A stretch of DNA of 64,000 bases from Tagaea sp. (GTDB lineage Bacteria; Pseudomonadota; Alphaproteobacteria; CACIAM-22H2). The DNA lies in assembly GCA_965279525.1 (NCBI GenBank), contig CBDIIB010000005.1, positions 363,998 to 427,997 on the forward strand, written 5' to 3'. The translations under genes were made by a program, and so were the position numbers. Each line of letters opens with the position of its first letter. Position 1 is the first letter of the stretch. Below, one piece after another: positions 6,218-64,000 of this stretch. The notes below the pieces were generated by a model. That model was not told where the DNA came from, ran no database searches, and saw only the letters and a program-made list of their open reading frames with translations.

Positions 6218-6221
6218 GCGC

Positions 6222-7204: not shown

Positions 7205-9223
7205 ATGGCCGCGAAGAAGAAGCCCGTCAAGAAAGCCCCCGCCAAGAAGGCCGTCAAGAAGCCTGACCCCAAGAAAGCAGCGGCCAAGAAGCCGGTCGCC
7301 AAGAAGGTGCTGCCCAAAAAGGTCGTCGCCAAAAAGCCGGCGCCCAAGCCGGTCGCGAAGAAGGTCGCCGCCAAGCCGGCCCCCAAGCTGGCGGCCAAGA
7401 AGCCCGCCCCCAAGATCGTCGCGAAGCCGGCGGCAAAGCCGGTCGCCAAAACCGTCGCCGCGAAGCCGATGCCTGTCGCCAAGCCCGTCGCCAAGCCGGT
7501 CGTGGCCGCCAAGCCCGTGCCGGTGGCAAAGCCGGTCGTGGCCAAGCCGGTGGCCCCGCCGCCGCCGCCCAAGCCCGTCGTCAAGCCGCCCGTGAAGGGG
7601 CCCGGCGGCACGGTGCTGCCCGACGACGGCGTCAAGCTCGACGCGAAGATCACGCCCGACCAGCTGACGATCCTCACGCCCGAAGCGCTCGCCTTCGTCG
7701 TCGAGCTCGAGCGCAAGTTCGGTGCCCGCCGCCATGAACTGCTCGCCGCGCGCGTCGAGCGCCAGAAGCGCCTCGATGCCGGCGAGCGGCCCGACTTCCT
7801 GCCGCAGACGCGCTCGGTGCGCGAGGCGGAATGGACCGTGGCCCCGCTGCCCAAGGACATCCTCGACCGCCGCGTCGAGATCACCGGGCCCGTCGACCGC
7901 AAGATGGTCATCAACGCGCTCAACTCCGGCGCCAACGTGTTCATGGCCGATTTCGAGGATGCCTCGACGCCGACCTGGGCCAACCTGATCGAGGGCCACG
8001 TCAACCTGCGCGACGCCAACGCCGGCACGATCGCGTTCACCGATCCCAAGACCGCCAAGGCCTACAAGCTCAACCCCAAGCATGCCGTGCTGTTCGTGCG
8101 CCCGCGCGGCTGGGCGCTGCCCGAGAAGCACCTCACCGTCGACGGCAAGCCGATGTCGGGTTCGCTGTTCGATTTCGGCATGTACTTCTTCCATAACGCC
8201 AAGCAGCTGCTGAAGAAGGGCTCGGGCCCGTATTTCTACCTGCCGAAGATGGAAAGCCATCTCGAAGCGCGCCTGTGGAACGACGTGTTCGTCCACGCGC
8301 AGGAGAAGCTCGGCGTCAAGCGCGGCTCGATCAAGGCAACAGTGTTGATCGAGACGATCCTCGCCGCGTTCGAGATGGACGAGATCCTCAACGAGCTGCG
8401 CGAGCACTCGGCCGGCCTCAATTGCGGGCGCTGGGACTACATCTTCAGTTTCATCAAGAAGTTCGCCGAGCAGCCCAACTACCTGATGCCCGACCGCGGC
8501 CAGGTGACGATGACCTCGCACTTCATGCGCTCGTACAGCCAGCTGCTGATCAAGACGTGCCACCGGCGCAACGTGCACGCGATGGGCGGCATGGCCGCCC
8601 AGATCCCGATCAAGGACGATCCGGCCGCCAACGAGGCCGCGATGGCCAAGGTGCGCGCCGACAAGGACCGCGAGGCGACCGACGGCCACGACGGCACGTG
8701 GGTGGCGCATCCGGGTCTCGTTCCCATCGCCAAGGCGGTGTTCGACGAGAAGATGAAGGACGCCAACCAGATCGCGCGCAAGCGCCAGGACGTGCATGTC
8801 GTGGCGGCCGACCTCATCCAGGTGCCGGCCGGCACGATGACGGAAGCGGGCCTGCGGCAGAACTGCGCGGTGGGCATCGGCTATCTGGAAGCGTGGCTGC
8901 GCGGCCTTGGCTGCGTGCCGCTCTACAACCTGATGGAAGACGCCGCGACCGCCGAGATCAGCCGCGCGCAGGTCTGGCAGCAGCTGCGCCACTCGGCCAC
9001 GCTCGAGGACGGGCGCGCGGTCGACAAGGCGATGATGCGCAAGATCGTCGAGGAGGAACTCGACAAGATCCGCAAGTCGGTCGGCGCCGAACGCTACGGC
9101 AAAGGGCGCTTCAAGGAAGCGGCGAAGATGTTCATCGAGCTGTGCGAGGCCGACCGCTTCCCCGACTTCCTGACGATCCCGGCCTATGACTGGATCATCG
9201 CGAACGAGTCGAAGATCGGGTGA
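7205..9223 (+). CDS. aceB: Malate synthase A with ~130-aa N-terminal Lys/Ala/Pro-rich (histone H1/AlgP-like) repeat extension
   Basis: Residues ~135-672 align to malate synthase A ([63 protein letters not shown]). Residues 1-130 are AKKP/KPVA repeats with no internal Met. Confidence 0.85.
7211..7600 (+). repeat. In-frame tandem degenerate repeats (gccaagaagccg / aagccggtcgcc units) encoding (A/V)KKP and KPVA repeats
   Basis: Visible nucleotide- and protein-level periodicity at the 5' end of aceB. Confidence 0.7.
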
Positions 9224-9232
9224 GGTCCCGGG

Positions 9233-9265
9233 AAACAGGTTACCACCGGTTACGGTAACCTGTTT
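9233..9265. terminator. Perfect 12-bp inverted repeat AAACAGGTTACC-N9-GGTAACCTGTTT 10 nt after the aceB stop. Terminator-like hairpin with no U-tract, or protein-binding palindrome.
   Basis: Read directly: aaacaggttaccaccggttacggtaacctgttt. Confidence 0.45.
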
Positions 9266-9360
9266 ATCCCGCTGGAATCGCTTGCAGGTAACTTCCGTGC
9301 GCGCGGCAACGTATGACTCCGACGTTCAGCATCGCGTGTGCATGCCATTAATTTCGCGGA

Positions 9361-9395
9361 CGGATCGATGCGACACGCGACGTCGCATCGATCCG
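9361..9395. promoter_or_regulatory. 14-bp perfect inverted repeat CGGATCGATGCGAC-N7-GTCGCATCGATCCG
   Basis: Read directly in the low-GC intergenic islet. Could be an operator or strong hairpin. Confidence 0.5.
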
Positions 9396-9442
9396 TCACG
9401 CAAATCTTGCAGTCATATTCGATTGTCAAAGAGCACGTCCCG

Positions 9443-9468
9443 AGGGTGTGAATATATTTACACACCCT
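9443..9468. promoter_or_regulatory. Inverted repeat AGGGTGTG-aatatattta-CACACCCT with AT-rich centre
   Basis: Read directly. 8-bp arms with a 10-nt AT loop, 200 nt upstream of the 9662 gene. Confidence 0.4.
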
Positions 9469-9470
9469 GC

Positions 9471-9500
9471 AATTGTCAAGATAAATAGCCTATAATATTT
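9471..9500 (+). promoter_or_regulatory. Putative sigma70-like promoter (ttgtca ... TATAAT at 9491-9496) for the 9662 gene
   Basis: Consensus -10 hexamer TATAAT. Upstream TTGTCA has suboptimal 12-nt spacing, so the -35 assignment is uncertain. Confidence 0.3.
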
Positions 9501-9503
9501 CCG

Positions 9504-9518
9504 CCGGGACAAGCCCGG
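9504..9518. repeat. Hairpin CCGGG-acaag-CCCGG, copy 1 of a 15-bp motif repeated at 10526-10540
   Basis: Identical 15-mer ccgggacaagcccgg occurs on both sides of the 9662-10450 gene. Confidence 0.5.
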
Positions 9519-9661
9519 TAAAAGTCCAGCCGGGCAATGCCCAATGCCGCGACTTCCGGAACCATCCCTATGGAAGGATGCCGGATACGGCACGCGCGGA
9601 ATTCGACTTGAATTATCCTTAGAGTGTATATAATTCAGCCGGGTAATCTGAGGTGTGTTAA

Positions 9662-10450
9662 ATGCTGAAGACTGTTTGCGTCATCGGTTCGATGCTGATT
9701 TCCGTGCTGGTACCGCAGTGCCTGGCACAGTCGATCCACGAGCAACCAAATGGCACCCGGATCCTCGGAAGCTTCCAACTCGGCTCGGTAACGGTTCCCC
9801 TGCCGCCGGGAGAGTGGGTCCTGAACGGGCGAGGCGTATTCACTGTGAACGCGTCGACCGGTCCTCTTAAGGTCGGCGAAGCCTATCTGTCCGAGTCGAA
9901 AGACGGCAAGGTGACCCGCATCATCTACGCGCGCGCGAATCTGGGCGGGGAATCGACCGGAGGCGGATGGACTCGCGACAGGAACGTCTGCGACCGGGTC
10001 AACGTGATCCACGCCGAGTTCGACCGGCACTTCAATCCCAAGGAAGCCAAGTGCTGGATGGTGACCCATTTCTTCGATGGAACGCCGAACAATCCGTCCG
10101 ACGCCTTCAGGGAATTCTACGCGTCACTCGCACAAAGCAAGCTCGATACGCCGAAGCTGCGCCTCAGTGCGGTCTATTTCCTGACGGACGCGACGAACTT
10201 CGTCTACGTGAACTACGCGTTCAATCCAGAGATCGTCGGCGTTCCGCTGGGAAGTCTCGAGCGCTGGGATTCGAGCGAATGGAATATCTTGCGAATCAAC
10301 CTGTTCCCCGACCGCGTGAAATTCGCCGGAACGATCAAGTCGTTCGGTGAAGCGATGCTTCCCTTCGTCGAAAAAGGCCTGCAAGGCCGCATCAAGGCCG
10401 GCGAGTACGTTCCCGTCACGATCGAAGGCTGGCCGACCGGCGCGCAGTGA
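9662..10450 (+). CDS. Secreted hypothetical protein (262 aa) of unknown function, with signal peptide and atypical lower GC
   Basis: MLKTVCVIGSMLISVLVPQCLAQS signal, SD-like GAGG upstream. Codon usage is A/T-richer than neighbours. No family recognised. Confidence 0.65.
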   Translation: MLKTVCVIGSMLISVLVPQCLAQSIHEQPNGTRILGSFQLGSVTVPLPPGEWVLNGRGVFTVNASTGPLKVGEAYLSESKDGKVTRIIYARANLGGESTGGGWTRDRNVCDRVNVIHAEFDRHFNPKEAKCWMVTHFFDGTPNNPSDAFREFYASLAQSKLDTPKLRLSAVYFLTDATNFVYVNYAFNPEIVGVPLGSLERWDSSEWNILRINLFPDRVKFAGTIKSFGEAMLPFVEKGLQGRIKAGEYVPVTIEGWPTGAQ

Positions 10451-44195: not shown

Positions 44196-45637
44196 CCGGG
44201 GGGTGCTTGCGAGTCGGCGAAGGCGATGCGGACTTTCAGGCCGCACCCCGAATCGCCGTCGGAAAGCGTCAATGTCGCGCCGTGCGACCGGCAAATGTCC
44301 GCGACGATCGCCAGTCCCAGTCCCGAGCCGTGGCGGTCACCCTCACCGCGCGTGGGTATCCGGTAAAATGGTTCGAGGACCCGCTCGCGTTCGGCTGGCG
44401 GAATTCCCGATCCGCTGTCCACGATCTCGATCGCGGCAGCCGGATCATGCAGGATCCGCACGACGACGGACCCGCCCGCCGGCGTGTACCGGATCGCGTT
44501 GTCGACCAGATTGACGATGGCCTCGTGCACGAGGACGGCATTGCCCTGCACGCTCCGCTCGCGGGCCGCCTGGACGTCGAGGGTCATCGCAATCCGCTTC
44601 TTCACGGCGGCCGGCGCGAGTTCGAGGCAGACCTGCCGCGCGATGTCCTCGAGCCGGATCGCGGAAAGCTCGCCGATCGCGCCGACCTGTTCGACACGGG
44701 CCAGGCTGAGAAGCTGGTTGGACAGCCGGACCGCCTGGTCGGTCGTGGCGCCCAGGGCGCGCAGGATGTCCCGCACCGATGCCGGGTCGTCGGCGCGCAG
44801 TGCCAGCTCCGAATTGGTCTTCAGCAGCGTCAGTGGCGTGCGCAGCTGATGCGACGCATCGGCGATGAATCGCCGCTGCCGGTCGATCAGCCGCCGCGAG
44901 ACGGCCATATAGTGGTTGATCGCGTCGATGAGCGGACGCACCTCCTTGTGGACGATGTTCGGATCGATCTGCGCCAGCTCCGTCGGCTCCCTGCGTTCGA
45001 CCTCTTGGCGCAGCCGGACCAGCGGACCGAGTGCAAGCCGCAAGGCGAACAGCGCGAGCAGCGCCTGGACGACGACGAGGAGCGTCAAGCGCCAGAGCGA
45101 GTCCGTCAGGATGTCGCGCGTCAGCAGATTGCGGGCGTCGAGTGTCTCGCCGACCTGGATGAGCGCCATGCCGCGCACGGTGCCGTCATAGATCGGCTGA
45201 TGGAGTGCCGCGACCCGCAGCGCGTGCCCGTCGTAGGTCTCGTCGTAGAAATGCACGAGTGCGGGATACGCGTCCGATCTCGGCGTTCCGGCCGGCACCG
45301 GCGGCAGGTCGCCGTAACCGGAAATGAACTCGCCCGCGATCCCCGTGATCTTGTAGTAGAGGCGCCCCGGCGAATCGGACTCGAATATGTCGAGCGCCAC
45401 GTACGGCACGTCGACGACGACGCGCCCGTCGAGCATCTGGACCCGTTCGGAGATCGCCCGAGCCGTCGCAAGCAGCGTCCTGTCGTAGGCGAAGTTGACC
45501 GCGGCGTGGACGTTTCCGTAGATCACGATCGAATTCACGACGATCAGTCCGGCCAGCGGCACAAGCAGCCATCGCATCAGCTGTCCGCGCAGGCTGCCGA
45601 GCGGACGGCGTGGCCCCGTCGCCTTGACGTCAGGCAT
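44168..45637 (-). CDS. Sensor histidine kinase (TctE/QseC-like)
   Basis: 489 aa. N-terminal SLRGQLMRWLLVPL pattern, 2 TM, HAMP. H-box FIADASHQLRTPL. G-boxes DSGSGIP / GSGLGLAIV. Confidence 0.85.
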   Translation of the reverse strand: MPDVKATGPRRPLGSLRGQLMRWLLVPLAGLIVVNSIVIYGNVHAAVNFAYDRTLLATARAISERVQMLDGRVVVDVPYVALDIFESDSPGRLYYKITGIAGEFISGYGDLPPVPAGTPRSDAYPALVHFYDETYDGHALRVAALHQPIYDGTVRGMALIQVGETLDARNLLTRDILTDSLWRLTLLVVVQALLALFALRLALGPLVRLRQEVERREPTELAQIDPNIVHKEVRPLIDAINHYMAVSRRLIDRQRRFIADASHQLRTPLTLLKTNSELALRADDPASVRDILRALGATTDQAVRLSNQLLSLARVEQVGAIGELSAIRLEDIARQVCLELAPAAVKKRIAMTLDVQAARERSVQGNAVLVHEAIVNLVDNAIRYTPAGGSVVVRILHDPAAAIEIVDSGSGIPPAERERVLEPFYRIPTRGEGDRHGSGLGLAIVADICRSHGATLTLSDGDSGCGLKVRIAFADSQAPPGQAAGSGSL

Positions 45638-46301
45638 CCGCGATCTCCAGCAGGTAGCCGATGCCCCGCAGGGTGACGATCTTGACGCCGCTGCCTTCAA
45701 GCTTCCGGCGGATGCGGTGGACATAGATCTCGATCGCATCCGGACTGGCGTCCGCATCCGATACGAAAATGCTTTCGAACAGGCGGTCCTTGCTGACCGC
45801 CTTGCCGGGGCGCGCGATCAGGAGCTCGAGCACCGCGCGTTCGCGCGGTGTAAAGACGAGCGGAACGCCCGCGCACGAGAAGGTGCGCTCGACGCTGTCG
45901 AAGACCAGGTTTCCGCACGCGATCAGGGCGGTGCCGTGGCCGTGGCTGCGCCTCAGAAGGGCCTTGGCCCGGGCTTCAAGCTCGGTGAGTTCGAAGGGCT
46001 TGGCGAGATAGTCGTCGGCGCCGAGATTCAGCCCCTGCACCCGGTCCGTGACCGACCCCCGCGCCGTAAGCACGAGGACGGGCGTGTCGCCGCCACGCGC
46101 GCGCAGCCGCTTCAGCACTTCCAGCCCGTCGAGGTCCGGCAGGGTCAGATCGAGTATCGCGAGCGCGTAGCTCTGGTCCCGGAGAAGCGCGTCGGCGTCG
46201 AGGCCATTGTCGGCGCACTCCACGGTAAAGCCGGCGTCGCGAAGCGCTCTCGCGAGCGAACGGGCCAGATCGCCATGGTCTTCCACGAGCAGAATTCGCA
46301 T
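45630..46301 (-). CDS. OmpR-family response regulator (TctD-like)
   Basis: 223 aa, receiver (MRILLVEDHGDLA...LDLTLPDLDG) plus winged-helix output. Confidence 0.85.
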   Translation of the reverse strand: MRILLVEDHGDLARSLARALRDAGFTVECADNGLDADALLRDQSYALAILDLTLPDLDGLEVLKRLRARGGDTPVLVLTARGSVTDRVQGLNLGADDYLAKPFELTELEARAKALLRRSHGHGTALIACGNLVFDSVERTFSCAGVPLVFTPRERAVLELLIARPGKAVSKDRLFESIFVSDADASPDAIEIYVHRIRRKLEGSGVKIVTLRGIGYLLEIADA

Positions 46302-46393
46302 CGATCTTACCCGCGCGCCAGGACGGACACGGTGATAGAGTTATCGCGGCGCCGACCAAGCCTCAAGATTCGTTTCAAAAATGGAGCATCCGG

Positions 46394-47356
46394 GTGGTTA
46401 GCCGACTGATCTGGGCCTTCGTTTGTGCCGTCGTGGCGGCGATCGCCCTTCCGGCGATCGCCCGCGCGGCGGGGCCCGAATGCATAGCGCCTGCCCGGCA
46501 GGGTGGCGGATTCGACCTGACCTGCCGGCTTGCGCAAGCGGGACTTGGCGAAGACGTCGGCTTGCGCGTCACCTACATGCCCGGCGGCGTAGGTGCTGTC
46601 GCGTACAACATGGTCGTCGCGCAGCGAACCGCCGAGCGCGACACGATCGTCGCATTTTCCGGCGGCTCTCTCCTCAATCTCGCCCAAGGCAAGTTCGGCA
46701 AGTTCTCCGGCCGCGAAGTCAGATGGATAGCGGCGATCGGTGCCGACTACGGGATGGTCGCGGTCCGCGCCGACGCGCCCTACCGGAGCCTTCAGGACCT
46801 GATCGGTGCCGTCAAGAAGTCGCCGAGGAAACGCGTGTTCGGCGGCGGCGGCACAGTCGGCAGCCAGGACTGGATGAAGGCGGCCGCACTCCTGCGCATG
46901 GCGAATGTCGACCACAGGGCGTTTCCCTACGTCTCGTTCGAAGGCGGCGGCGAGGCATCGACGGCACTGCTGAGCGGACACGTGCAGGTATACACAGGCG
47001 ACGTCTCGGAAGTCGGCCAGCTCTGGCGCGAGGGCCGGATCCGCATCCTCGCGGTCCTTTCCGACACGCGTCTTGCCGGCGAAATGGCGTCGATACCGAC
47101 GGCCCGTGAGCAGGGCTATCCGCTTGCGTGGCCGACCGTGCGGGGGTTCTACATGGGGCCCAATGTCGATCCGGGGGACTACGAGCGTTGGGTCGGACGG
47201 TTCAGGGAAATGCTCGCAAGCGAGAAATTCCGCGACGCCCGGCTTGCCAGCGCTCTCCTCCCGTTCGACAGGACCAGCGACGATCTTGCTCAGTATGTCG
47301 AACGCTCGATCGCCGAGTACCGCGAGCTCGCGCGGACATTCGGACTGGCTAACTGA
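46394..47356 (+). CDS. tctC: Tripartite tricarboxylate transporter substrate-binding protein (TctC/Bug family)
   Basis: 320 aa with signal peptide. Bug-family core (GGGFDLTCRL...GGGGTVGSQDW). Confidence 0.8.
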   Translation: MVSRLIWAFVCAVVAAIALPAIARAAGPECIAPARQGGGFDLTCRLAQAGLGEDVGLRVTYMPGGVGAVAYNMVVAQRTAERDTIVAFSGGSLLNLAQGKFGKFSGREVRWIAAIGADYGMVAVRADAPYRSLQDLIGAVKKSPRKRVFGGGGTVGSQDWMKAAALLRMANVDHRAFPYVSFEGGGEASTALLSGHVQVYTGDVSEVGQLWREGRIRILAVLSDTRLAGEMASIPTAREQGYPLAWPTVRGFYMGPNVDPGDYERWVGRFREMLASEKFRDARLASALLPFDRTSDDLAQYVERSIAEYRELARTFGLAN

Positions 47357-47384
47357 CCGGCGCACGAAGGGGCCAACGACGTCC

Positions 47385-48890
47385 CTAACCCACGCGATCG
47401 CGTCGCTCGCTGCGCGCACGCCACCGGTTCACTAGCGCCGGTGCGAACACGATCACCACCGCGCAGCACCAGAGGACCTGGGAAATGCTGCTCTCGACGA
47501 GGATCGAAAGTTCGCCGCCGCTGATCGCCAGCGCGTTGCGCAGGTTCTTCTCCGCGACGTCGCCGAGAACGAAGCCGAGGACGATGGGAGCCAGGTCGAA
47601 CTCCAGCTTCCGGGCGAGATACCCGAACACGCCGACCCCGAGCATCAGGACGATCGAGAATACGCTCGAATAGGCGCTGTAGACGCCGAGGAACGACAGC
47701 ACGAGGATGCCCGGCAGCAGGACCCAGTTGGGGACGGTCAGCATGCGCACGAACAGGCCGATCATCGGCAGGTTCATCAGCAGCAGGATCACGTTGCCGA
47801 TATACATCGACGCGATGAGTCCGCCCGCCAGTTCGGGTCTGTCGGTGAAGAGCTGCGGCCCGGGCATGATGTTATAGAGCATCAGGGCGCCCAGCATCAC
47901 CGCGGTGGTCCCGCTGCCGGGTACGCCCAGCGTGAGCATCGGGACGAACGCGCCGCCGGCGGCCGCGTTGTTCGCGGCCTCGGGGGCGGCAAGCCCGCGT
48001 ACGTCGCCCTTGCCGAACGTGCCACGGTCGAGCAGCCGCTTTTCGGTCGTGTAGGAGATCGCGCTGGCGACCGACGCGCCGGTCCCGGGCAACACGCCGA
48101 CGACGAAGCCGATCCCGGTCGAGCGCAGGGTCGGCCAGATGCAGGCGCGCAGGTCTGCCCAGCTTGGAAAGCCCTTCCCGACCTTGACCGGCTTCAGGCG
48201 GCCGTGGAATTCCTTCTCGAGCATCAGCAGGACCTCGCTGATCGAGAACAGGCCGATCACCAGGATGATGAACTCGATCCCGTCGTAGAGTTCCGGCTCG
48301 TCGAACGTGAAGCGGTAGGCACCGGAGGTCGGATCGAGCCCGATCGTGGCGAGCATGAGGCCGATCGTGCAGCCGATCATCGTCTTGACCGGCTCGGCAC
48401 CGACCATCGAGCTCAACGTCGCGAACGCGAACACCATCAGCACGAAGTACTCGGCCGGTCCGAAGCCGATCGCGAGTTTTCCGAGCAGCGGCGCGAAGAG
48501 CGTCAACCCGACGACCGCGAGCATTCCGCCGACGAACGAACTGATGGCGCTTATCGCCAGCGCCTCCGCGGCACGCCCCTGCCGCGCCATCGGATAGCCG
48601 TCGAGTGCCGTCATCACGGCACCGGCATCGCCGGGTACGTTCAGCAGGATCGATGATATCCGACCGCCGTATTCGGCGCCGTAATAGATGCCGGCGAGAA
48701 GAATCATCGTGCTCTCGGCCGGCACGCCGAGGGTGTAGAGAAGCGGCAGCAGCAGCGCGATTCCGTTGATCGGCCCGATCGCGGGCAGAGCGCCGACGAT
48801 CGTGCCGAGGAAGCAGCCGGCAAGCCCGTAGAGCAGATTCTGCCACTGGAGGGCGACGCCGAATCCGGTCCAGAGATAGTCGAGCGACAT
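47385..48890 (-). CDS. tctA: Tripartite tricarboxylate transporter permease TctA
   Basis: 501 aa polytopic membrane protein with TctA family sequence ([10 protein letters not shown]...[15 protein letters not shown]). Confidence 0.85.
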
Positions 48891-48893
48891 CGT

Positions 48894-49364
48894 TCAGCTC
48901 CCGAATCCGAATCCGAGCGGCAGCGGAACGCCGAACACGCCGGTGAAAAGGCCATACCAGATCGCCGCATTCGCGACGCCGACGGCAATGGCCTGCCGAT
49001 AGGTCGCGCGAAAGAGCAGCGCCACGCCGCCGCACAGAAGGAATGTGGCGACCGGAAAGCCCGCGATCGTGTAGAGGGCCGCCGTCCCGAAGCTCAAGCC
49101 CAGCAGCACCCCGAGCTTCCCCGCAAGGGCGCCCTTCGGCCATGGCTCGGCAAGGCCCGGCCGATACGCGTACCAGATCGACAGGGCCGCCAGCACGAAA
49201 CCCAGAAAGAGCGGGAAGGCGCGCGGCCCCCAGGGATCGGACGAGAAGCCGTATTCGATGTTGGCGGCGAAAAGGCAATAGACGAGCGCGAAAGCCAGCA
49301 GCGCAAGTCCGGGAATCCGCCGCGCGCCACCGACCGGGCCGGTCTGGCCGTGATTGTTTTCCAA
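48894..49364 (-). CDS. tctB: Tripartite tricarboxylate transporter small membrane subunit TctB
   Basis: 156 aa, 4 TM, located between tctA and tctC. Confidence 0.7.
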   Translation of the reverse strand: MENNHGQTGPVGGARRIPGLALLAFALVYCLFAANIEYGFSSDPWGPRAFPLFLGFVLAALSIWYAYRPGLAEPWPKGALAGKLGVLLGLSFGTAALYTIAGFPVATFLLCGGVALLFRATYRQAIAVGVANAAIWYGLFTGVFGVPLPLGFGFGS

Positions 49365-49442
49365 GGCAGTCTTCCTTCCCGCTGCGCCGTCGCCGGCCGG
49401 GGCCCCGTTCGCGGGCCCGGCCGGCCGGTCCGCACAGGCCCG

Positions 49443-50408
49443 TTAGAGCCCGGCTTCCTTTGCCAGAAGCTTGAAGCGCGCGACTTCCTCCTTGACGCGG
49501 GCATCGAACGCCGGACCGATCACGGTGTAGGGGAAGAGCCCGCGTGCGGCACGCTCGCGTTCGAACTCGGGAGTCGCGCTCAGCTTCGTCAGCAACTCGG
49601 TCCACCACCGGTAATCCGCGTCGCTGACCTTGGGCCCGACATAATAGCCGCGCCACACGGTCCAGATCGCGTCGTAGCCCTGCTCGCGCGCTGTCGGAAC
49701 AGCCGCAAGATCGCCGGGCAGACGCTGTTCGGACATCACGGCAAGAATCCGCACCTTGCCGGCCTTGTGGTGCTGGCCCATCTCGCCCGCGTCGCCCGAC
49801 GCGATCTTGATGTGACCGCCCTGCAGCGCCGTCATGACGGCACCGCCGCCTTCGAGCGCCGCATATCGCATCGTGCGGGGTGCCACGCCGACGGCTCTCG
49901 CGAGAACAGCCGCCTTCATCCAGTCCTGGCTGCCGACGGCACCGCCGCCGCCGACCGGCAGGCTGCCCGGATTCTGCTTGAAGGCCTGCATGAGTTCGCC
50001 GAGCGACTTGTAGGGGCTGTCGGCTGCGACCGCGATCACGCCGAAATCCGCGCCGAGGCCGGCGACCCAGCGCACGGCGTTCTCGTCGTGGCGTCCGAAC
50101 TTGCCCTGCGCGAGCAGCAGCGCCGAACCGGTCGACGCGGCGATGACAAGGCCCGGATCGCCCGGGCGCGTGCCGATGACGTGGTTGTACGCGACCGCCC
50201 CGACGCCGCCTTCCATGAAGGTGACGGCCATCGGCTTGTCGATCAGCTTGGCGGCAAGCAGCGAGTTTCCGACGAGCCGGCAGGTGAGGTCGAAGCCCCC
50301 GCCCGGCTGCGCGCCGGCGAGGCATTCGGTCTTGTCGGGTGCGGCTGCGACCGGCAGCGGACCCGCGAACATCAGAATGGCGGCGGCAGCGGCGTATATG
50401 GAACGCAT
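49443..50408 (-). CDS. tctC: Tripartite tricarboxylate transporter substrate-binding protein (second TctC paralog)
   Basis: 321 aa. Clearly a paralog of the 46394 protein (ECLAGAQPGGGFDLTCRL... vs ECIAPARQGGGFDLTCRL...). Confidence 0.8.
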   Translation of the reverse strand: MRSIYAAAAAILMFAGPLPVAAAPDKTECLAGAQPGGGFDLTCRLVGNSLLAAKLIDKPMAVTFMEGGVGAVAYNHVIGTRPGDPGLVIAASTGSALLLAQGKFGRHDENAVRWVAGLGADFGVIAVAADSPYKSLGELMQAFKQNPGSLPVGGGGAVGSQDWMKAAVLARAVGVAPRTMRYAALEGGGAVMTALQGGHIKIASGDAGEMGQHHKAGKVRILAVMSEQRLPGDLAAVPTAREQGYDAIWTVWRGYYVGPKVSDADYRWWTELLTKLSATPEFERERAARGLFPYTVIGPAFDARVKEEVARFKLLAKEAGL

Positions 50409-50508
50409 GGCGTCATCCCCTCAAAATCGTTTCCGGCAGATTTTTATCTGCCCGGGGGACAAGCTACCGGAGTCGCCTTTCAACCAGCTTTCAGCCGCAT
50501 GGCCGTGT

Positions 50509-55217: not shown

Positions 55218-56189
55218 CTAGTTCGTCTGCGGCTCGATATCGTCGAACAGCAGGCCGGCCTGCAGCACGTCTTCCAGACCGAAGTTCCGCCATAGCTCGC
55301 CTGCGCGCAGGTGCCGGCGGAAATCGTCCCAGAACGCGGCCTTGCCGGGCAGACCATCAGGCCACGCACGCATGAACAGGTCGCGCGCGGTCGCCGCTTC
55401 GCCCGAATAGATCAGCATCAGCAGCGAGCGCCACGCCTGCACGGGCGGGATCGCGTGCACGTCGTCGGGCGTGCGCAGGCCAAGCGGCACATAGGCCCCG
55501 CCCGACGCGCGCCAGTTTTCCAGGGCCGTGCGCATCTCGGTCTCGAAACGCTGCAGGCGACGCGGCGATGTGGGCGCGCGCCCGACGGCATTCGCGTCGA
55601 CGACGAAGCGCCGCCCTTCCCACACGAGATTGAGGGCCGGCGTCGGGCCGTTGGACAGCGGCGCGTTCCAGCCCGCGAAGGCGCGGTCGGAGAAGACGAG
55701 GCGCTCGACCGCGCGCTCGTCGCCGTCTTCCACGCCGGCGAAGATGTCGCCGCGCCCGATCGTCTGCACCGAAAAGCCGTCGCGAAGCGCGAACGCATGC
55801 AGCGTGTCGCCGCCGGACCCGCCGCCCGGGCTTGCATCCACCAGCAGGTCGGGGCCGTCGGCGCTGCCCTCGTGGAACGCGACGACCTTGAAGATGCCCG
55901 CCGACGTCAGATGCACGATGCGCCCGCGCCGCTCGACCAGCATCAAGGCGGGATGTTCCCGGTTGGCGGGATAGAGCGAAAAGACATGGCCGCGCAGCGT
56001 GAAGCGCTGCGGGACCGGATCCTGCGCGCGCCGTTCGGTCAGTCGTTCGAAGAGCAGCCAGTCGAAGGTCGTGTCGGCGCGCGCGGTGCGCACCCAGCCG
56101 GTCAGGGCGGCGAGCAGCACGGCCGCCGCCAGACACGCGGCAAGGAAGCCGCGGGGATCGATCGCTGGGGGCCGGCGTCGATTGCGCAT
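55218..56189 (-). CDS. Hypothetical exported/membrane-anchored protein
   Basis: Start at MRNRRRPPAIDPRGFLAACLAAAVLLAAL (signal-anchor). No family recognised. Confidence 0.5.
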   Translation of the reverse strand: MRNRRRPPAIDPRGFLAACLAAAVLLAALTGWVRTARADTTFDWLLFERLTERRAQDPVPQRFTLRGHVFSLYPANREHPALMLVERRGRIVHLTSAGIFKVVAFHEGSADGPDLLVDASPGGGSGGDTLHAFALRDGFSVQTIGRGDIFAGVEDGDERAVERLVFSDRAFAGWNAPLSNGPTPALNLVWEGRRFVVDANAVGRAPTSPRRLQRFETEMRTALENWRASGGAYVPLGLRTPDDVHAIPPVQAWRSLLMLIYSGEAATARDLFMRAWPDGLPGKAAFWDDFRRHLRAGELWRNFGLEDVLQAGLLFDDIEPQTN

Positions 56190-56276
56190 CGCGCACACTG
56201 CCTTCCGTCCGGAACAACCAAGGGTCAAATCAAAGCATATTCCGTGCCGGACGGCGAGTCGGGGATGCGGGAGGGG

Positions 56277-56645
56277 TCAGGCGTCGCCCGCCAACCGCCG
56301 TCCGAACTTTCGTACACACGCCTTGAAACAGCCGACCGGATCGCAGTCGGCATGTTCGACCTGCCCGGCGGCGGGTGCAGGCGGCTGCGCTTCTGCCACC
56401 TGGCTCCCGTTGACAATCCGGACCAGGAGAAAAAGCGCGCCTCCCACCGAGCCGAATATCACCAGTCGCGCGGAGTTCTCGGCCGGAAACAGCTCGAACC
56501 ATGCGCCGATCGCCATGACGATCGCCGCAAATGCGAAAGCGCCAAGCAGCCCTTCCGTCAGAAATTCCAGAAACATCAGCAAGAGCGCCAAAACAACCCA
56601 TGCGCCGATCGGATACTCGTGCAGGTAGGCAATATAACTTTCCAT
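56277..56645 (-). CDS. NfeD-like membrane protein (OB-fold C-terminus)
   Basis: Start at MESYIAYLHEYPIGAWVVLALLLMFLEFL. 2 TM plus soluble C-terminal domain. Lies downstream of the stomatin gene. Confidence 0.5.
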   Translation of the reverse strand: MESYIAYLHEYPIGAWVVLALLLMFLEFLTEGLLGAFAFAAIVMAIGAWFELFPAENSARLVIFGSVGGALFLLVRIVNGSQVAEAQPPAPAAGQVEHADCDPVGCFKACVRKFGRRLAGDA

Positions 56646-56826
56646 TGAATGTCCACCGCAGGTTGGGATGCGAATAGTCGAAAAGGATGCTACCGGAAAT
56701 GGCTTCGACCTGTCCAACAGCTGCGCGCGACGATAGCTGGCAATACCGGGCTACCTCCAAACGACTTGGCCGGCCATGACCGAACCGAAGGAAGCCGCCG
56801 TCGGATGTCGGACTCTTGCGACCCGA

Positions 56827-57036
56827 TCAGGGTGGCGGGTTCCGGCGGACGTATCGCGCGACCGTCGCGTACATGCCGAGGCAAAGCGCCAGGAACACCG
56901 CCACCCTTGCCGCGTGGGATTCAGGGTTGAGTTCGAGCGCTTCGCCGGTCGCGAACAGGAGCAATGCCAGCAGAACGGAAAGTCCGATACGCGTCGACAG
57001 CGGCGAGAACAGCAGCTCGACGATCGGCCAGATCAT
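56827..57036 (-). CDS. Small (69 aa) two-TM membrane protein, hypothetical
   Basis: MIWPIVELLFSPLSTRIGLSVLLALLLFATGEALE... inside the stomatin/NfeD operon. Confidence 0.4.
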   Translation of the reverse strand: MIWPIVELLFSPLSTRIGLSVLLALLLFATGEALELNPESHAARVAVFLALCLGMYATVARYVRRNPPP

Positions 57037-57067: not shown

Positions 57068-57349
57068 TCAATAGCGGTTGATGTCCGGCGTCCGGTCCGA
57101 GAACCGGCGCAGCAGCGTGCGCAGCGGCACGATCAGCGCCACACCGATCGCGGCGAAGATGACCAGCTTCAGGAGCAGCGGCTCCGGCAACATGCCGGTC
57201 CACGCACCTGCCGCCATCAGGAAGCCCGCCGTCGCGAACGGCAGGAAGAATCCGATCGTCAGCAGGATCTCGACGACGAGGAACACGACCCCGATCGCCG
57301 CCCACACGACGACCGGATAGTCCGTGAAAACCGCCTCGATGAAGTTCAT
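57068..57349 (-). CDS. NfeD-family short membrane protein
   Basis: 93 aa, 2-3 TM. Start/stop overlap (ATGA) with the stomatin gene, the classic SPFH-NfeD pair. Confidence 0.6.
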   Translation of the reverse strand: MNFIEAVFTDYPVVVWAAIGVVFLVVEILLTIGFFLPFATAGFLMAAGAWTGMLPEPLLLKLVIFAAIGVALIVPLRTLLRRFSDRTPDINRY

Positions 57350-58230
57350 TTCGACCTCAGCGCTTCGAGCACGGTGGCAAGGCTGCCCAGCGACTTCGTG
57401 ATATCGGTCGGGATGACGATGAGCTTGGAGTTTCCGGAGCGCGCGATCTCGGCGATGCTGTGGATCTGCTGCTTCATGATCTCGAAATCGACGGCGGCCT
57501 GTCCGTTCGCCTCGATCGCCTTGCCGACGGATGTCGTCGCGTAGGCTTCGGCGTCGGCAAGCACGCGCCGCGCCTCGGCCTGTTTCTGCGCGGTATAGAA
57601 CTCGCCGTCAGCCTTGTGCTGCTGCGCCTGCCGGTCGCCTTCCGCCTTGGTGACGGCGGCCCGGCGCTCGCGCTCGGCATTGAGCTGCTGCTGCATGGCC
57701 GTGCGCGTCGCGGCGTCGACCGACACGTCGAGCACTTCGGTGCGTGTGATCTCGATGCCCCAAACGGTGCAGGCTTCCGACAGCGAATCCTTGATCTTCT
57801 CGTTGATGAAGTCGCGCTTGGCCTGCACCTCGTCGAACTCCATGTGGCCGCCGGTCGCGCGCACGATGCTCGTCACCGTCGTCTTGACCGCCTGGTCGAC
57901 ATCGGTGATCCGGTAGACCGACTTCGCCGCATCGACGACGCGGAAAAACACCGCCGTCGTCAGGTGGATCTCGACGTTGTCCTTGGTGATGACGCTGATC
58001 TGCTGCGGCTCGAGCTGGCGCTCCAGGATGCTGACCTTCGCCGCGACCCGGTTGAGGATCGGCACGATGAAATTGAGACCGGGCCTCAGCGTGACCGTGT
58101 ACTTGCCGAACTGCTCGACGATGTATTCCTGCGACTGCGGGACGATCTTGATCCCGCTGATCGCGATCAGGACGAAGAGGACAAGAAGGATCAGGAAGAA
58201 GAATTCGGTCGTCAGGGAAACGGCGGACAT
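57346..58230 (-). CDS. SPFH/Band-7 (stomatin-like) protein
   Basis: 294 aa. N-terminal TM. SPFH domain (IVPQSQEYIVEQFGKY...). Coiled-coil C-terminus. Confidence 0.85.
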   Translation of the reverse strand: MSAVSLTTEFFFLILLVLFVLIAISGIKIVPQSQEYIVEQFGKYTVTLRPGLNFIVPILNRVAAKVSILERQLEPQQISVITKDNVEIHLTTAVFFRVVDAAKSVYRITDVDQAVKTTVTSIVRATGGHMEFDEVQAKRDFINEKIKDSLSEACTVWGIEITRTEVLDVSVDAATRTAMQQQLNAERERRAAVTKAEGDRQAQQHKADGEFYTAQKQAEARRVLADAEAYATTSVGKAIEANGQAAVDFEIMKQQIHSIAEIARSGNSKLIVIPTDITKSLGSLATVLEALRSK

Positions 58231-58312: not shown

Positions 58313-58927
58313 TCAGCTTCCCTTCGTCTTGTAGAGCGGCTCGGAAATGCCCTTGAGCGACAGCCGCTTGCGGTCGGGCTCCGGGGCCGCCAGCGCTTCG
58401 CATTCGACCAGCGTGGCGAGGCTGCGCTTGGTCAGGTTCTGGTAGTCGCGTGTACCCCCGCGCTTCCACTCGATCTCCTTGTCGGTCACCTCGCGCAGGA
58501 TCTTGGCCGGGATGCCGGCGACCAGCGTGCGCGGCGGGACGACGAAGCCCGCCTTGACGAACGCCATCGCCGCGACGATGGCGCATTCGCCGACGATTGC
58601 CCCGTCCATCACCACTGCGTTCATGCCGATCAGCGCATCGCGCTTGATGATGCAGCCATGCAGGATGGCGCCGTGGCCGATATGCGCGTCCACCTCCAGC
58701 ACCGTGTCGGTATCGGGAAAGCCGTGAACGACGCAGTTGTCCTGCAGGTTCGAGCCGTCCTGCATCACCAGCCGGCCGAAATCGCCGCGCATCGCGGCAC
58801 CGGGGCCGACATAGCAGTTCGCACCGATGATCACGTCGCCGATGAGTACGGCCGTGGGATGCACGAAGCTCGACGGATCGACCACCGGTACCATGCCGTC
58901 GATGGCGTAGACGCGCGGGCGGCTCAT
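58313..58927 (-). CDS. paaY: Hexapeptide-repeat gamma-carbonic-anhydrase-family protein. PaaY-like, adjacent to paaN.
   Basis: 204 aa left-handed beta-helix hexapeptide repeats ([25 protein letters not shown]). Context: phenylacetate cluster. Confidence 0.6.
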
Positions 58928-60597
58928 GCCGGCACCGTCGCGGCGGCCGTGCGGCGCACCTGTGCCACATGGAAGCGCGGCGTGACGAAACCTGCGTCGG
59001 TCAGCGAGGCGTTGGCCGCCGGGTTGCAGCCCGTCGCGTGATAGTCGCTGAACGCGGCCGACTGGTTGACGAACACGCCGCCGGTCAGGTTCTCCGACAG
59101 CGCCACGCCGGCATCGGCCGCGCGCTCCTCGGCCGCGGCGAGGAACGCCGCGTCGGTCGAATAGACGGCGGCCGTGATGGCCCCCTTCTTCGCGATGCTG
59201 CCGAACGCGGCGTCGAGGGCGCGCATCGGATCGGCCGACGTGACGAGATAGGCGACCGGCCCGAACATCTCCTGCCCGTAGATCGCGCTCTGGCTTTCGT
59301 CGAGAGCGACGACCAGCGGCGTGCGCACGGTGGCGTCCGCGAAATTGGGATGCGCCATCGCGGCACTGGCGCGCACGACCTTGCCCTGGCGGGCCGCCAT
59401 CTCGATGCGCCCGAGCGTCGCCTGGTTCTGGATGGCGCCCAGCACTTCGGCCGCACGTGCGGGATCGCCGAGAAGCTTGTCGATGGCGAGGCCAAGCTGC
59501 GCGCCGAAATCGGCGGACGACATAACGTGCCGTCGGGCGTCTTCACGCCGGTGGCCGGCACGAAGATGTTCTGAGGCGTGGTGCACATCTGGCCCGAATA
59601 GAGGCTGAGCGAGAAGGCGAGGTTCTGGAACATGCCCTTCGCGTTGTCGGTACTTTCCACGATCGACGGCGTTGGTCCCCGCCTTCTCGGCGAAGATCGT
59701 CGCGTGGCCCGCGTTCTTCGACAGCCAGTCGCCGAAATCCGACCCGCCGGTATAGTCGATGATCGCGAGCTCCGGGCGCTTCGCCAGCGTCTGGGCCAGC
59801 GGCGCATATATGCCGTCGGCCATCAGCTGCACGGCATCGGGATCGAGGCCGGCTTCGGTAAGCACCGTGCGCGCGACACGCACGGTCATCGCGAGCGGCA
59901 GCGTGGCGGCCGGGTGCGGCTTCACCAGCGTGGGATTGCCGGTGGCGAGGTTGGCGAAGATCGCGGGATACGTGTTCCAGGTCGGGAACGTGGCGCAGCC
60001 GATGGCAAGGGCGATGCCCTTGGGCACGATGCGGTAGTCCTTGTCGAGGACGAGCGGCGGGTTCTTGCCCTGCGGCTTTTCCCAGCGCGCGTGCGCGGGG
60101 ACGCGCGACATTTCGCGCCACGCGGTCGCGACGGCTTCAAGCCCGCGGTCCTGCGCATGCGGGCCGCCGGCCTGGAAGGCCATCACGAAGCCCTGCCCGG
60201 TCGTGTGCATGACTGCGTAGGCGATCTCGAACGACATCCTGTTGAGGCGCGCGAGGATCTCGAGGCACACGCCGACTCGCGTCTCGGTGCCCGCCTTGCG
60301 CAGGCTCGTGCGCGCATGCGCGGCGTTGCGGAATGCCGTTTCGATGTCGAGGCGCGGATAGGCGATCTTGAGGTCGAAGCCGTAGGGCGAGCGTTCGCCG
60401 CCGACCGTGCCGCTGGCGACCTGGTCAAGCGCGAAGGGCTGGCCGAGCTGGGCTTCGAACGCCTTCTTCGCGTCGTCGTTGGCGGTCTCGCCATAGATCT
60501 TGCCCGACGGCGCTTCCGGATAGGCCGACCAGTAGCCGCGCGCGTCGATGGCGGCGACGGCGGCATCGAGCGTGGCGCGATGGCGTTCGAAAAACAT
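58924..60597 (-). CDS. paaN: Phenylacetic acid degradation ring-opening aldehyde dehydrogenase PaaN. ORF open, but a ~139-nt internal segment including the catalytic Cys motif is read out of frame.
   Basis: N- and C-terminal thirds match PaaN/BoxD-type ALDH. The conserved [36 protein letters not shown] appears only in the -1 frame (ORF 59085-59807) between ~59525 and ~59663. Confidence 0.7.
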
Positions 60598-60754: not shown

Positions 60755-61534
60755 ATGGCCACCACGACGATCCGCACGGCGCTCGAGGACGGGGTCGCGA
60801 CCATAGCACTCGACCGTCCCGACAAGCTCAACGCCTTCGTGCCCGAGATGCACGCCGAACTGCGCGCGGCCCTCGAAGCCGCACCCGCATCAGGGGCGCG
60901 CGCGGTGTTCCTGACCGGCGAGGGGCGCGGCTTCTGCGCCGGCCAGGATCTGGGCCAGCGCAAGGCCGGCGACACGCCCGACCTGTCGGAGACGCTCGAG
61001 CGGCTCTACAACCCGCTGATCCGCACGATCCGCGACCTGCCGCTGCCTGTCGTGTGCGCGGTCAACGGTGTCGCCGCCGGAGCGGGCATGTCGCTCGCAC
61101 TTGCCTGCGACATCGTCTTTGCCGCGCGCTCGGCCAGCTTCATCCAGGCTTTCGTCAAGATCGGCCTTGCGCCCGACAGCGGCTCGACCTGGTTTTTGCC
61201 GCGCCTTGCCGGCAACGCGCGCGCCAAGGGGCTCGCACTGCTGGGCGAGAAGATCACGGCCCAGCAGGCGTACGACTGGGGCCTGATCTGGAAGGTCTGC
61301 GACGACGAGCGCGTCAAGGACGAAGCCCTCGGGCTTGCCCGCCATCTCGCCACGCAGCCGACCAAGGCGCTCGCGGCGATCAAGCGCGCGATCGACACCG
61401 GCATGGACCGCACGCTCGACGCCCAGCTCGACTACGAGCGCCACATCCAGGGCGAGCTTGGCCGCACGGCGGATTATCGCGAGGGCGTGGCGGCCTTCTT
61501 CGAGAAGCGCAAGCCGCGCTTCGGGGGCAACTGA
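60755..61534 (+). CDS. paaG: 1,2-epoxyphenylacetyl-CoA isomerase (enoyl-CoA hydratase family)
   Basis: 259 aa crotonase fold (FLTGEGRGFCAGQDL...CAVNGVAAGAGMSLALACDI). Start at MATTTIRT. Confidence 0.8.
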   Translation: MATTTIRTALEDGVATIALDRPDKLNAFVPEMHAELRAALEAAPASGARAVFLTGEGRGFCAGQDLGQRKAGDTPDLSETLERLYNPLIRTIRDLPLPVVCAVNGVAAGAGMSLALACDIVFAARSASFIQAFVKIGLAPDSGSTWFLPRLAGNARAKGLALLGEKITAQQAYDWGLIWKVCDDERVKDEALGLARHLATQPTKALAAIKRAIDTGMDRTLDAQLDYERHIQGELGRTADYREGVAAFFEKRKPRFGGN

Positions 61535-61535
61535 G

Positions 61536-63050
61536 ATGGCCGCGATCCAGCCCGACCGCACCGTCGGCATCGTGGGTGCCGGCGCCATGGGCACCGGCAT
61601 CGCGCAGATCGCCGCGAGTGCCGGCCACCGCGTGCGGCTCTACGACATGCGCGAGGGGGCGGTCGATACGGCCATCGCAAACCTGTCGAAGACGCTGGAT
61701 ACGCTCGTCTCCAAGGGCAAGCTTGCCGCCGACAAGGCCGACCTGATCCGCGGGCGGCTGGAGCCGGCCGAATCGCTCGGCGATTTCGACGTCTGCGCGC
61801 TGGTCGTGGAAGCCATCGCCGAGGAAGTCGAGGCCAAGCGCAAGCTCTTCGCCGACCTCGAAGGTGTCGTGGGCGCCGACTGCATCCTTGCGAGCAACAC
61901 CTCGTCGCTGTCGATCTCGGCCATCGCGCGCGGCCTTGCCAGCCCCGAGCGCGTGGCCGGATTCCATTTCTTCAATCCGGCTCCCGTCATGGCGCTGGTC
62001 GAGATCGTGTCGGGCCTTTCGACCTCGCACGACGTGGCGGCCACGCTGTTCGACACCGCGACCGCGTGGGGCAAGTCGCCCGTGCATGCGGCCTCCACGC
62101 CGGGCTTCGTCGTCAACCGCTGTGCGCGCCCGTTCTATGCCGAAGCGCTGCGCCTGCTGACCGAGCGCGCGGCCGATGCCGCCACCATCGATGCGGTGAT
62201 GCGCGATGCCGGCGGCTTCCGCATGGGGCCGTGCGAACTGATGGACCTGATCGGCCACGACGTGAACTTCGCCGTGACCAATTCGGTGTTCGACGCCTAT
62301 TTCAAGGACCCGCGCTATCTGCCCTCGGTCCTGCAGGCCGAGATGGTCGCGGCCGGAAGGCTGGGGCGCAAGAGCGGGCGCGGCTTCTTCGGCTATGGCG
62401 CACAAGCCGACAAGCCCTACCCCTCGACCGAACCGGTGGGCACGCGGCCGGCACAGGTAATCGTCGAGGGCGAACTCGATTTCCTCGAACCGCTGGTCGC
62501 GCGCGCCAAGGACGTGGAACTCGCCGTCCATCGCCGCCCCGCAGGCGCGCGGGGGCCTTCGCTGCTGGTCGACGGCGTGGCGCTGCGCCTGACCGACGGG
62601 CGCACGGCGACGGTGCGCGCCCGGCAGACGGGCGAGCATGCGCTGGTGCTGCATGATCTCGCCCTCGACTACACGGGCTGCACGCGCATCGCGGTTTCGG
62701 TCGCCGACCAGGCGACGGGCCAGGCCGCCGCGGTCGCGACCGGCTTCTTCCAGGCGTGCGGCATCGCGGTGTCGCTGATCGACGATGCGCCCGGCCTCAT
62801 CGTCATGCGCACCTTCGCCATGCTGGTCAACGAGGCGCTCGAGGCCGTGCAGCAGGGCGTGGTCACGGCCGAGGGCGTCGACATCGCGATGACCAAGGGC
62901 GTCAACTATCCCAAGGGGCCGTTCGCGTGGGGCCGCGAGATCGGCCTGCCGACGGTCAAGACCGTGCTCGACAATCTGGCGGCCCACTATGGCGAGGACC
63001 GCTACCGCGCGTCGCCGCGCCTCAACCGGCTGGTCGCGCGGGAACGATGA
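61536..63050 (+). CDS. paaH: 3-hydroxyadipyl-CoA dehydrogenase (long-form 3-hydroxyacyl-CoA dehydrogenase)
   Basis: 504 aa. N-terminal Rossmann GIVGAGAMGTGIAQ. HFFNPAPVM. Extra C-terminal domain. Start at MAAIQPDRT 2 nt after the paaG stop. Confidence 0.8.
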   Translation: MAAIQPDRTVGIVGAGAMGTGIAQIAASAGHRVRLYDMREGAVDTAIANLSKTLDTLVSKGKLAADKADLIRGRLEPAESLGDFDVCALVVEAIAEEVEAKRKLFADLEGVVGADCILASNTSSLSISAIARGLASPERVAGFHFFNPAPVMALVEIVSGLSTSHDVAATLFDTATAWGKSPVHAASTPGFVVNRCARPFYAEALRLLTERAADAATIDAVMRDAGGFRMGPCELMDLIGHDVNFAVTNSVFDAYFKDPRYLPSVLQAEMVAAGRLGRKSGRGFFGYGAQADKPYPSTEPVGTRPAQVIVEGELDFLEPLVARAKDVELAVHRRPAGARGPSLLVDGVALRLTDGRTATVRARQTGEHALVLHDLALDYTGCTRIAVSVADQATGQAAAVATGFFQACGIAVSLIDDAPGLIVMRTFAMLVNEALEAVQQGVVTAEGVDIAMTKGVNYPKGPFAWGREIGLPTVKTVLDNLAAHYGEDRYRASPRLNRLVARER

Positions 63051-63505
63051 GCGCGCGCTCCAAGGACGCGCTCGCCGCGAAGGCCGCCGATGCGATGTGG
63101 GCGCAGGACCGCGCGTCGAAGCATCTCGGCATGGAGCTGGTCTCGGCCACATCGGGCAAGGCCGTCATGCGCATGAAGGTGGTGCCTGAGTTCTGCAACG
63201 GCCACGGCACGTGCCATGGCGGCTTCATCTTCTCGCTGGCGGATTCCACGTTCGCGTTCGCGTGCAACAGCCACAACAAGGTGACGGTCGCCAACAACTG
63301 CGCGATCACGTTCGTGGCACCTGCGTTCGAGGGCGACGTGCTGACCGCAAGTGCGGTCGAGGTGCATCGCGGCGGCCGCTCGGGCGTGACGGAAGTCGAG
63401 GTGCGCGGGCAAGACGGCGGGCTCGTCGCCCTGTTCCGCGGCCATTCGACCCAGATCAAGGGCGAGCTCGTGCCGGGACTGACATCAGAGGAACCGCACA
63501 AATGA
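63047..63505 (+). CDS. paaI: Hydroxyphenylacetyl-CoA thioesterase PaaI (hotdog fold)
   Basis: 152 aa. NGHGTCHGGFIFSLADSTFAFACNS hotdog thioesterase motif. ATGA overlap with the paaH stop. Confidence 0.8.
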   Translation: MSARSKDALAAKAADAMWAQDRASKHLGMELVSATSGKAVMRMKVVPEFCNGHGTCHGGFIFSLADSTFAFACNSHNKVTVANNCAITFVAPAFEGDVLTASAVEVHRGGRSGVTEVEVRGQDGGLVALFRGHSTQIKGELVPGLTSEEPHK

Positions 63506-64000
63506 AAGACGCCTTCATCGTCGACGCGATCCGCACGCCGGTCGGCCGCTATGGCGGCGCGCTTTCGGGCGTGCGCACCGACGATCTCGCCGCCATCCCG
63601 CTCCGCGAACTCGTGAAGCGCAACGCGGGCGTGGATTTCGCCGCCGTGGACGACGTCGTGTTCGGCTGCGCCAACCAGGCGGGCGAGGACAACCGCAACG
63701 TCGCGCGCATGGCGCTGCTGCTGGCGGGGCTTCCCGTGGGCGTGTCGGGCACGACGATCAACCGGCTGTGCGGCTCGGGTCTGGATGCGCTTGCCATGGC
63801 CGCGCGCGCGATCCGCACCGGCGAATGCGACCTGATGATCGCGGGTGGCGTGGAAAGCATGAGCCGCGCGCCCTTCGTGATGGGCAAAGCGGAGACCGCT
63901 TTCAGCCGCGATGCCGCGATCTACGACACGACCATCGGCTGGCGCTTCGTCAATGCGCTGATGAAGCAGATGCACGGCATCGATTCGATGCCCGAGACGG
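63502..64000 (+). CDS. paaJ: 3-oxoadipyl-CoA thiolase PaaJ (N-terminal part. Runs past the window end.)
   Basis: MKDAFIVDAIRTPVGRYGGALS...NRLCGSGLDA thiolase N-terminus with active-site Cys. ATGA overlap with the paaI stop. Confidence 0.8.
   Translation, partial: MKDAFIVDAIRTPVGRYGGALSGVRTDDLAAIPLRELVKRNAGVDFAAVDDVVFGCANQAGEDNRNVARMALLLAGLPVGVSGTTINRLCGSGLDALAMAARAIRTGECDLMIAGGVESMSRAPFVMGKAETAFSRDAAIYDTTIGWRFVNALMKQMHGIDSMPET

Follow-up and report, generated by a model that had tools for sequence, protein, structure and literature searches.

Two nearby insertions put the active-site segment of an assembled Tagaea paaN gene out of frame

The paaN locus and its surroundings

We have analysed a window of 64,000 nucleotides from a Tagaea sp. 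contig, in which a single long open reading frame (ORF) spans the paaN region. This ORF lies on the minus strand at positions 58924-60597 and, as assembled, encodes a 557-residue stand-alone aldehyde dehydrogenase (ALDH) of the phenylacetate pathway, of the PaaN_2/PacL type. The product scored 690.1 bits against the NCBIfam equivalog model TIGR02288 (PaaN_2), whose curated cut-off is 578.75 bits. Once the frame had been repaired by removing the insertions described below, the score rose to 791.3 bits (a gain of 101 bits), with the alignment running from model position 4 to position 550 of 551. The repaired protein also matched PDB entry 5uju with an E value of 1e-192 and aligned to it gap-free through the GQMCT motif. 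A protein search returned PaaN proteins (P0001-P0013) with 76-93% identity to the window paaN, the closest being P0001 (93%) and P0002 (91%), followed by proteins at 82-87%. One of these entries, P0003, is the window's own paaN ORF as it stands in the protein collection, with one member from one 1.87-Mb contig and with NCBI and ENA as sources. Judging by its sequence, this is predicted to be an orthodox paaN whose product, the NAD-dependent 3-oxo-5,6-dehydrosuberyl-CoA semialdehyde dehydrogenase, acts in the phenylacetate pathway.

The next gene on the minus strand is paaY (58313-58927), an intact gene for a hexapeptide-repeat thioesterase. It matched TIGR02287 with an E value of 2.5e-89 and 298 bits, which is under the 319.6-bit cut-off, and its start overlaps the paaN stop in the sequence ATGA (58924-58927). 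On the plus strand, a block transcribed divergently from paaN (60755-64000) comprises paaG (60755-61534, TIGR02280), paaH (61536-63050, TIGR02279), paaI (63047-63505, TIGR02286) and the start of paaJ, the 3-oxoadipyl-CoA thiolase gene (63502 to the window end at 64000, NF006551), all of them in frame. This arrangement, with paaY directly downstream of paaN and paaG, paaH, paaI and paaJ divergently adjacent, is the genomic linkage of PaaN_2. The gene order is common to two of the related loci (L001 and L002), where paaK comes next. All related loci used here (L001-L006) come from Rhodospirillales metagenome-assembled genomes (MAGs), labelled Tagaea, Azospirillum or Rhodospirillales.

The initial annotation had described paaN as part of an otherwise intact paa cluster. 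This holds for what can be seen, since paaY, paaG, paaH, paaI and the start of paaJ are intact; the window covers only part of the cluster, however, and paaK and paaABCDE were not seen in it. No back-up ALDH is encoded within the 64 kb.

Several other features of the window deserve a record. Between paaY and a 336-residue gene without a family match lies a minus-strand pair (57068-58230) formed by an SPFH/HflK-like gene (294 residues) and a 93-residue ORF, which is present in L004-L006 and absent from L001-L003. Compared with L001 and L002, the 336-residue gene itself has 4 extra nt (56192-56228) at the position of the start codon of the orthologues, which are 323-327 residues long. Its first in-frame start in the window (56228) gives 336 residues, so that the gene start probably differs from that of the orthologues. 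A block of about 6.3 kb (44196-50505) is missing from the otherwise syntenic L003 and L004, in which its flanks are adjacent; it contains a two-component sensor kinase and response regulator, TctA, an ORF at 48894-49442 in the same frame, and two TctC-type tricarboxylate transporter genes. Malate synthase (7205-9223, plus strand) has an N-terminal extension of about 135 residues (~7205-7620) made of Ala/Lys/Pro-rich repeats, with the Pfam domain MS_N beginning at residue 147; such a histone-H1-like AKP tail is unusual on a glyoxylate-cycle enzyme. Upstream of it, a XerC/D-type tyrosine recombinase gene (6099-7163, plus strand; Phage_integrase plus SAM-like N domain) is preceded by a gene for a 592-residue protein without a Pfam match (4318-6217, plus strand) that has a GC-rich first codon position, and the start of the latter is overlapped by the stop of a 46-residue putative membrane peptide. 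Two stretches of about 650-690 nt each (56164-56854 and 9216-9866) gave no coding signal in the frame analysis described below, no Rfam family and no tRNA; in fact, no Rfam family or tRNA was matched across the whole 64 kb.

Reading frame of the catalytic segment

We have examined the reading frame with a six-frame codon-usage hidden Markov model (HMM), for which twelve long window genes served as the training set. The HMM placed an excursion at 59524-59661 within the otherwise single-frame paaN. A maximum-sub-segment (Kadane) scan of the log-odds of the alternative minus the main frame yielded 76 bits at 59664-59527; among the genes lying wholly within the window (the two truncated at its ends were left aside), the runner-up reached 17.6 bits over 7 codons. 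The paaN excursion is thus far beyond chance. Every other frame change called by the HMM in the 64 kb coincided with a stop codon, i.e., with a gene boundary, and the HMM, a stop/start check at the junctions and the Kadane scan revealed no further excursion in the approximately 60 genes and 57 kb of other coding sequence. Likewise, blastn comparison with the relatives over approximately 18 kb detected no other coding indel of a length not divisible by three; short pairs of +/-1 gaps, which were alignment noise, either lay in intergenic DNA or had fewer than 10 nt between them.

The two methods agreed on an out-of-frame segment of about 46-47 codons at 59527-59664 (minus strand), in which the conserved coding frame differs from that of the ORF. 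Translation of the three minus-strand frames over 59450-59760 showed Arg-rich nonsense in the annotated frame, with ...FGPDVHHAS... at the position of GQMCT, while the neighbouring frame (ORF 59085-59807) encodes 46 residues of conserved ALDH sequence that include this motif. The codon of the catalytic nucleophile (TGC, 59583-59585, minus strand), corresponding to Cys338 of the repaired protein in the alignment of GQMCT to 5uju, is read only in the -1-shifted frame; it is outside the assembled reading frame and returns to it when both insertions are removed. The general-base Glu of the ALDH superfamily (the E of EKAG, cf. ELGGK) remains in frame, within the stretch FAEKAGTN that is invariant in the homologue alignment. 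As assembled, paaN therefore encodes a full-length predicted product in which Arg-rich nonsense replaces the nucleophile loop and which would be unable to work as an ALDH.

All ten other aligned homologues (P0003, the window's own entry, being left out) use the hidden frame, and the shifted peptide occurs in no protein of the collection except P0003, which means that this sequence has no independent support. Together with the gain on TIGR02288 and the 5uju alignment, this bore out the two starting observations of the initial annotation, namely the Arg-rich nonsense in the annotated frame and the ALDH sequence with the Cys of GQxCT in the neighbouring one. The alignment to orthologous paaN that it had proposed as a check gave the same answer with the ten homologues and the six related loci. 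That annotation had also stressed that the ORF stays open in spite of a destroyed active site. Both features are present, but the openness is unremarkable: the genome has 68% GC, just 0.26% of the codons in the -1 frame of the window genes are stops, and stretches of 47 codons are stop-free 90% of the time. Because the -1 frame is so poor in stops, an open paaN ORF is uninformative.

DNA alignment with L001 and L002, and blastn with all six related loci (82-93% amino acid identity), resolved the two lesions, both of which are missing from six of six relatives. The first is an extra C at 59665 (minus strand; GCCGT[C]GATCGTG, versus GCCGT-GATYGTC in the relatives) that shifts translation to the -1 frame with respect to the conserved codons. 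An extra base had been predicted at about 59664, and this proved correct. The second had been taken for a missing base near 59524, whereas the alignment with the six relatives shows an insertion of two bases at 59525-59521 (minus strand; ACG-TTATG-TCG in the window, ACG-CTG-TCG in the relatives), by which the original frame is restored. The +1/-1 pair first proposed and the +1/+2 pair observed have an equal effect on the frame. The insertions are 139 bases apart and add up to +3, i.e., one extra codon, and no extra substitutions are found between them. Homopolymers and tandem repeats are absent from both insertion sites. We also looked for a local template for template switching, in the form of direct or inverted quasi-repeats, and no k-mer of at least 10 nt across either site recurs nearby.

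A side observation concerns the bases next to the insertions. At 59661-59665, the inserted C lies directly 5' of GATC and creates CGATCG, and at 59521-59528 the inserted TA lies directly 3' of ACGT(T), so that both insertions abut 4-bp palindromes. This could be a coincidence, or else hint at a motif-linked effect of basecalling or repair; it was noticed post hoc and would arise by chance in approximately 1-2% of cases. We therefore place no weight on it, or on a possible link to a methylation-related basecalling error.

To date the lesion, we have removed the three inserted bases and made a codon-level comparison of the gene with its relatives. Between the window and L001, the segment read in the hidden frame had dS 0.31, dN 0.019 and dN/dS 0.06, and the rest of the gene had dS 0.31, dN 0.036 and dN/dS 0.12. 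The corresponding values for L001 versus L002, which are both intact, were dS 0.42, dN 0.033 and dN/dS 0.08 inside the segment and dS 0.43, dN 0.068 and dN/dS 0.16 outside it. In addition, 169 alignment columns reach a conservation of 95% or more across 120 homologues, and the repaired PaaN conforms to all of them. The hidden frame is thus under strong purifying selection, and no trace of relaxed selection, be it a raised dN/dS or lost conserved residues, was seen anywhere in paaN. The initial annotation had considered a decaying gene, which these values do not support. Essentially all divergence of the lineage thus took place with the hidden frame in translation, and the lesion is either artefactual or extremely recent. 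Import of the 139-nt patch by recombination was rejected, as dS relative to L001 is the same inside and outside the segment.

Origin of the insertions

The initial annotation had left a choice between an assembly error and a genuine, recent inactivation, and the use of the other frame by the orthologues, together with the intact neighbouring paa genes, supported that these are the two explanations to be weighed. Our preference, which is a mild one, goes to a cluster of local errors in the consensus of a long-read MAG, which we regard as the most likely cause of the double insertion. Such errors would have put both insertions into the assembled paaN; we infer that they are absent from the DNA of the cell, where the true sequence would be GCCGTGATCGTG ... 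ACG(C/T)TGTCG, and that the organism would have a normal, functional paaN.

The age of the lesion speaks for an error of this kind. The hidden frame is perfectly preserved, its dN/dS resembling that of the pair of intact relatives, and the insertions have zero evolutionary age, as expected of an error. They are absent from the six relatives and from the ten aligned homologues, with P0003 as the sole entry bearing the shifted peptide. The second lesion is moreover unable to restore catalysis, which leaves no obvious selective reason for a real pair. The origin of the data points in the same direction: the nearest relatives are all MAGs, several of them assembled into contigs of megabase size, and a coverage of approximately 11x is given in the name of one contig, which suggests a long-read metagenome assembly as the source. 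MAGs on megabase contigs at such coverage are a setting for residual indels, and errors in long-read metagenome assemblies cluster at dips in coverage or read quality. There is a precedent as well, in that 28 of 73 interrupted coding sequences re-sequenced in Mycobacterium smegmatis turned out to be sequencing errors (PMC1852416).

The cleanliness of the surroundings counts against a consensus error. With no other excursion in the window genes and no other frame-changing coding indel against the relatives, it is improbable that two random errors, arising independently, should fall within 139 nt and also sum to three; we estimate approximately 0.1-0.3% under a uniform model. Furthermore, the usual residual consensus error of HiFi or Nanopore data falls in a homopolymer or repeat context, whereas both insertions lie outside such contexts and the 139 nt between them are free of extra substitutions.

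The other explanation, to which we give somewhat less than an even chance, is that the inactivation is genuine and very recent, with the sampled population carrying both insertions and making a full-length but catalytically dead PaaN. The pair could have arisen in one mutational event, such as an error-prone repair patch, or by sequential hits, the second of which restored the downstream frame without restoring activity. The features that weigh against a consensus error are in favour here, i.e., the lack of any other frame error across 64 kb, the position of the insertions outside the homopolymer contexts typical of long-read errors and the clean sequence between them. A frameshift followed by a nearby second one is also classic intragenic suppression, which the +1 and +2 compensation within 139 nt resembles. 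In a sequential scenario, the second insertion would in addition have restored the native overlap of the paaN stop with the paaY start. If only the +1 insertion were present, the shifted frame would meet no stop for another 449 codons and would run into that of paaY, yielding a 760-residue fusion; the +2 insertion by itself would end translation at 59085 after 503 residues, 160 nt short of paaY. A second hit would therefore alter the expression of paaY, whose product hydrolyses, and so detoxifies, the CoA-bound shunt product of the pathway (PMC7497051). The M. smegmatis study is also a precedent for authentic lesions, as most of its re-sequenced interruptions were genuine (45 of 73; PMC1852416).

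The genuine origin has to face the same lack of relaxed selection in paaN, which requires both hits to be extremely recent, and two independent insertions not due to slippage and only 139 nt apart are very unlikely. Unless selection or a single event is invoked, two real insertions in negligible time are as improbable as two errors. The selective story is in turn ad hoc, given that the compensation does not recover enzyme activity. Finally, the allele was not found in a second sample. In the protein collection, only the window's own entry exceeded 93% identity; GTDB species representatives reached at most 87%, and two DNA scans of JGI metagenomes, of which the first tolerated the indel and the second targeted the conserved core, retrieved no sequence of the same species.

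The two remaining readings are both extremely improbable. Programmed recoding, in which a +1 shift at the first site and a -1/+2 shift at the second would let the conserved protein be made from the gene as written, has in its favour that a +1 shift after GUC plus a 2-base skip after UUA gives the exact orthologous protein; it was ruled out because neither site is slippery (no X XXY YYZ heptamer and no P-site re-pairing of the CUU-U type) and the frame is uninterrupted in the relatives, with the insertions found in none of six and nothing conserved, and neither site has a stop or a rare, hungry codon. To our knowledge, no mechanism of +2 recoding exists, and a gene recoded at two separate points would be without precedent. 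That the annotated frame is the true one, the ALDH-like core in the other frame being coincidental or the annotated sequence a lineage-specific novelty, fits the uninterrupted ORF and the 690 bits with which the product still passes the PaaN_2 cut-off, but it is contradicted by the alignments, in which the ten other homologues use the other frame and no other protein has the shifted peptide, and by the 101 bits of family score, the 76 bits of codon bias and the purifying selection of the hidden frame. Orthologues that share the annotated frame had been named by the initial annotation as the finding that would overturn its proposal; the relatives use the hidden frame.

Consequences and comparison with known systems

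A real lesion would make this organism a naturally ALDH-deficient degrader of phenylacetate. In the ALDH step, the reactive ring-opened semialdehyde is oxidised via a thiohemiacetal on the catalytic Cys, which is Cys295 in Escherichia coli PaaZ, and an Azoarcus evansii pacL mutant does not grow on phenylacetate and accumulates tropone (PMC7497051). By analogy with pacL and paaZ mutants, the expectation for the Tagaea strain would be a pacL-like phenotype, with loss of growth on phenylacetate and diversion of the semialdehyde to 2-hydroxycyclohepta-1,4,6-triene-1-formyl-CoA and tropone. This would be a modest, strain-level observation.

In terms of family, the window paaN resembles the PaaN_2/PacL-type ALDHs (TIGR02288, PDB 5uju, A. 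evansii PacL) over its full length and above the cut-off; it differs from them in having approximately 46 codons around the nucleophile in the wrong frame and hence a predicted product without the Cys. A natural counterpart exists in Phaeobacter inhibens, where PaaZ2 carries a catalytic Cys-to-Arg replacement and reroutes phenylacetate catabolism to tropone products (PMC7497051). In both cases the dehydrogenase of the ring-cleavage step has no nucleophile and other pathway genes, including paaY, are intact. PaaZ2, however, is a diverged second copy that has a hydratase domain, is conserved and is linked to the tda biosynthetic cluster, whereas the window paaN is a single visible copy without hydratase domain, and its lesion is neither diverged nor conserved. 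One may still speculate that the double insertion is real and maintained, and that with a full-length, nucleophile-less PaaN and a paaY kept in its proper coupling by the second insertion, the phenylacetate pathway would yield 2-hydroxycyclohepta-1,4,6-triene-1-formyl-CoA, the tropone precursor, in a newly arisen analogue of PaaZ2. We consider this very unlikely. The window gives no sign of an evolved rerouting: tropone-tailoring genes are lacking near paaN, the lesion is not conserved, and no divergence is seen.

Whatever its origin, the lesion has consequences for databases. P0003 stands in public protein collections as a normal 557-residue protein with 46 nonsense residues at its active site. 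A compensated lesion of this type would mislead metabolic reconstruction, either because an incomplete pathway is called complete or, if it is an error, because a wrong protein is propagated. Gene callers and pseudogene flags miss such lesions, and the paaN case can serve as a useful curation flag.

A further parallel is the study of interrupted coding sequences in M. smegmatis (PMC1852416). There, as here, the indels were visible only against the orthologues, and conserved sequence continued in another frame. Among database sequences, a frameshift that is silently compensated is an ordinary finding and implies no new mechanism. The window pair differs from the M. smegmatis cases in that both lesions are insertions in a non-repeat context and in that they compensate each other, so that no stop or truncation arises by which gene callers would flag paaN.
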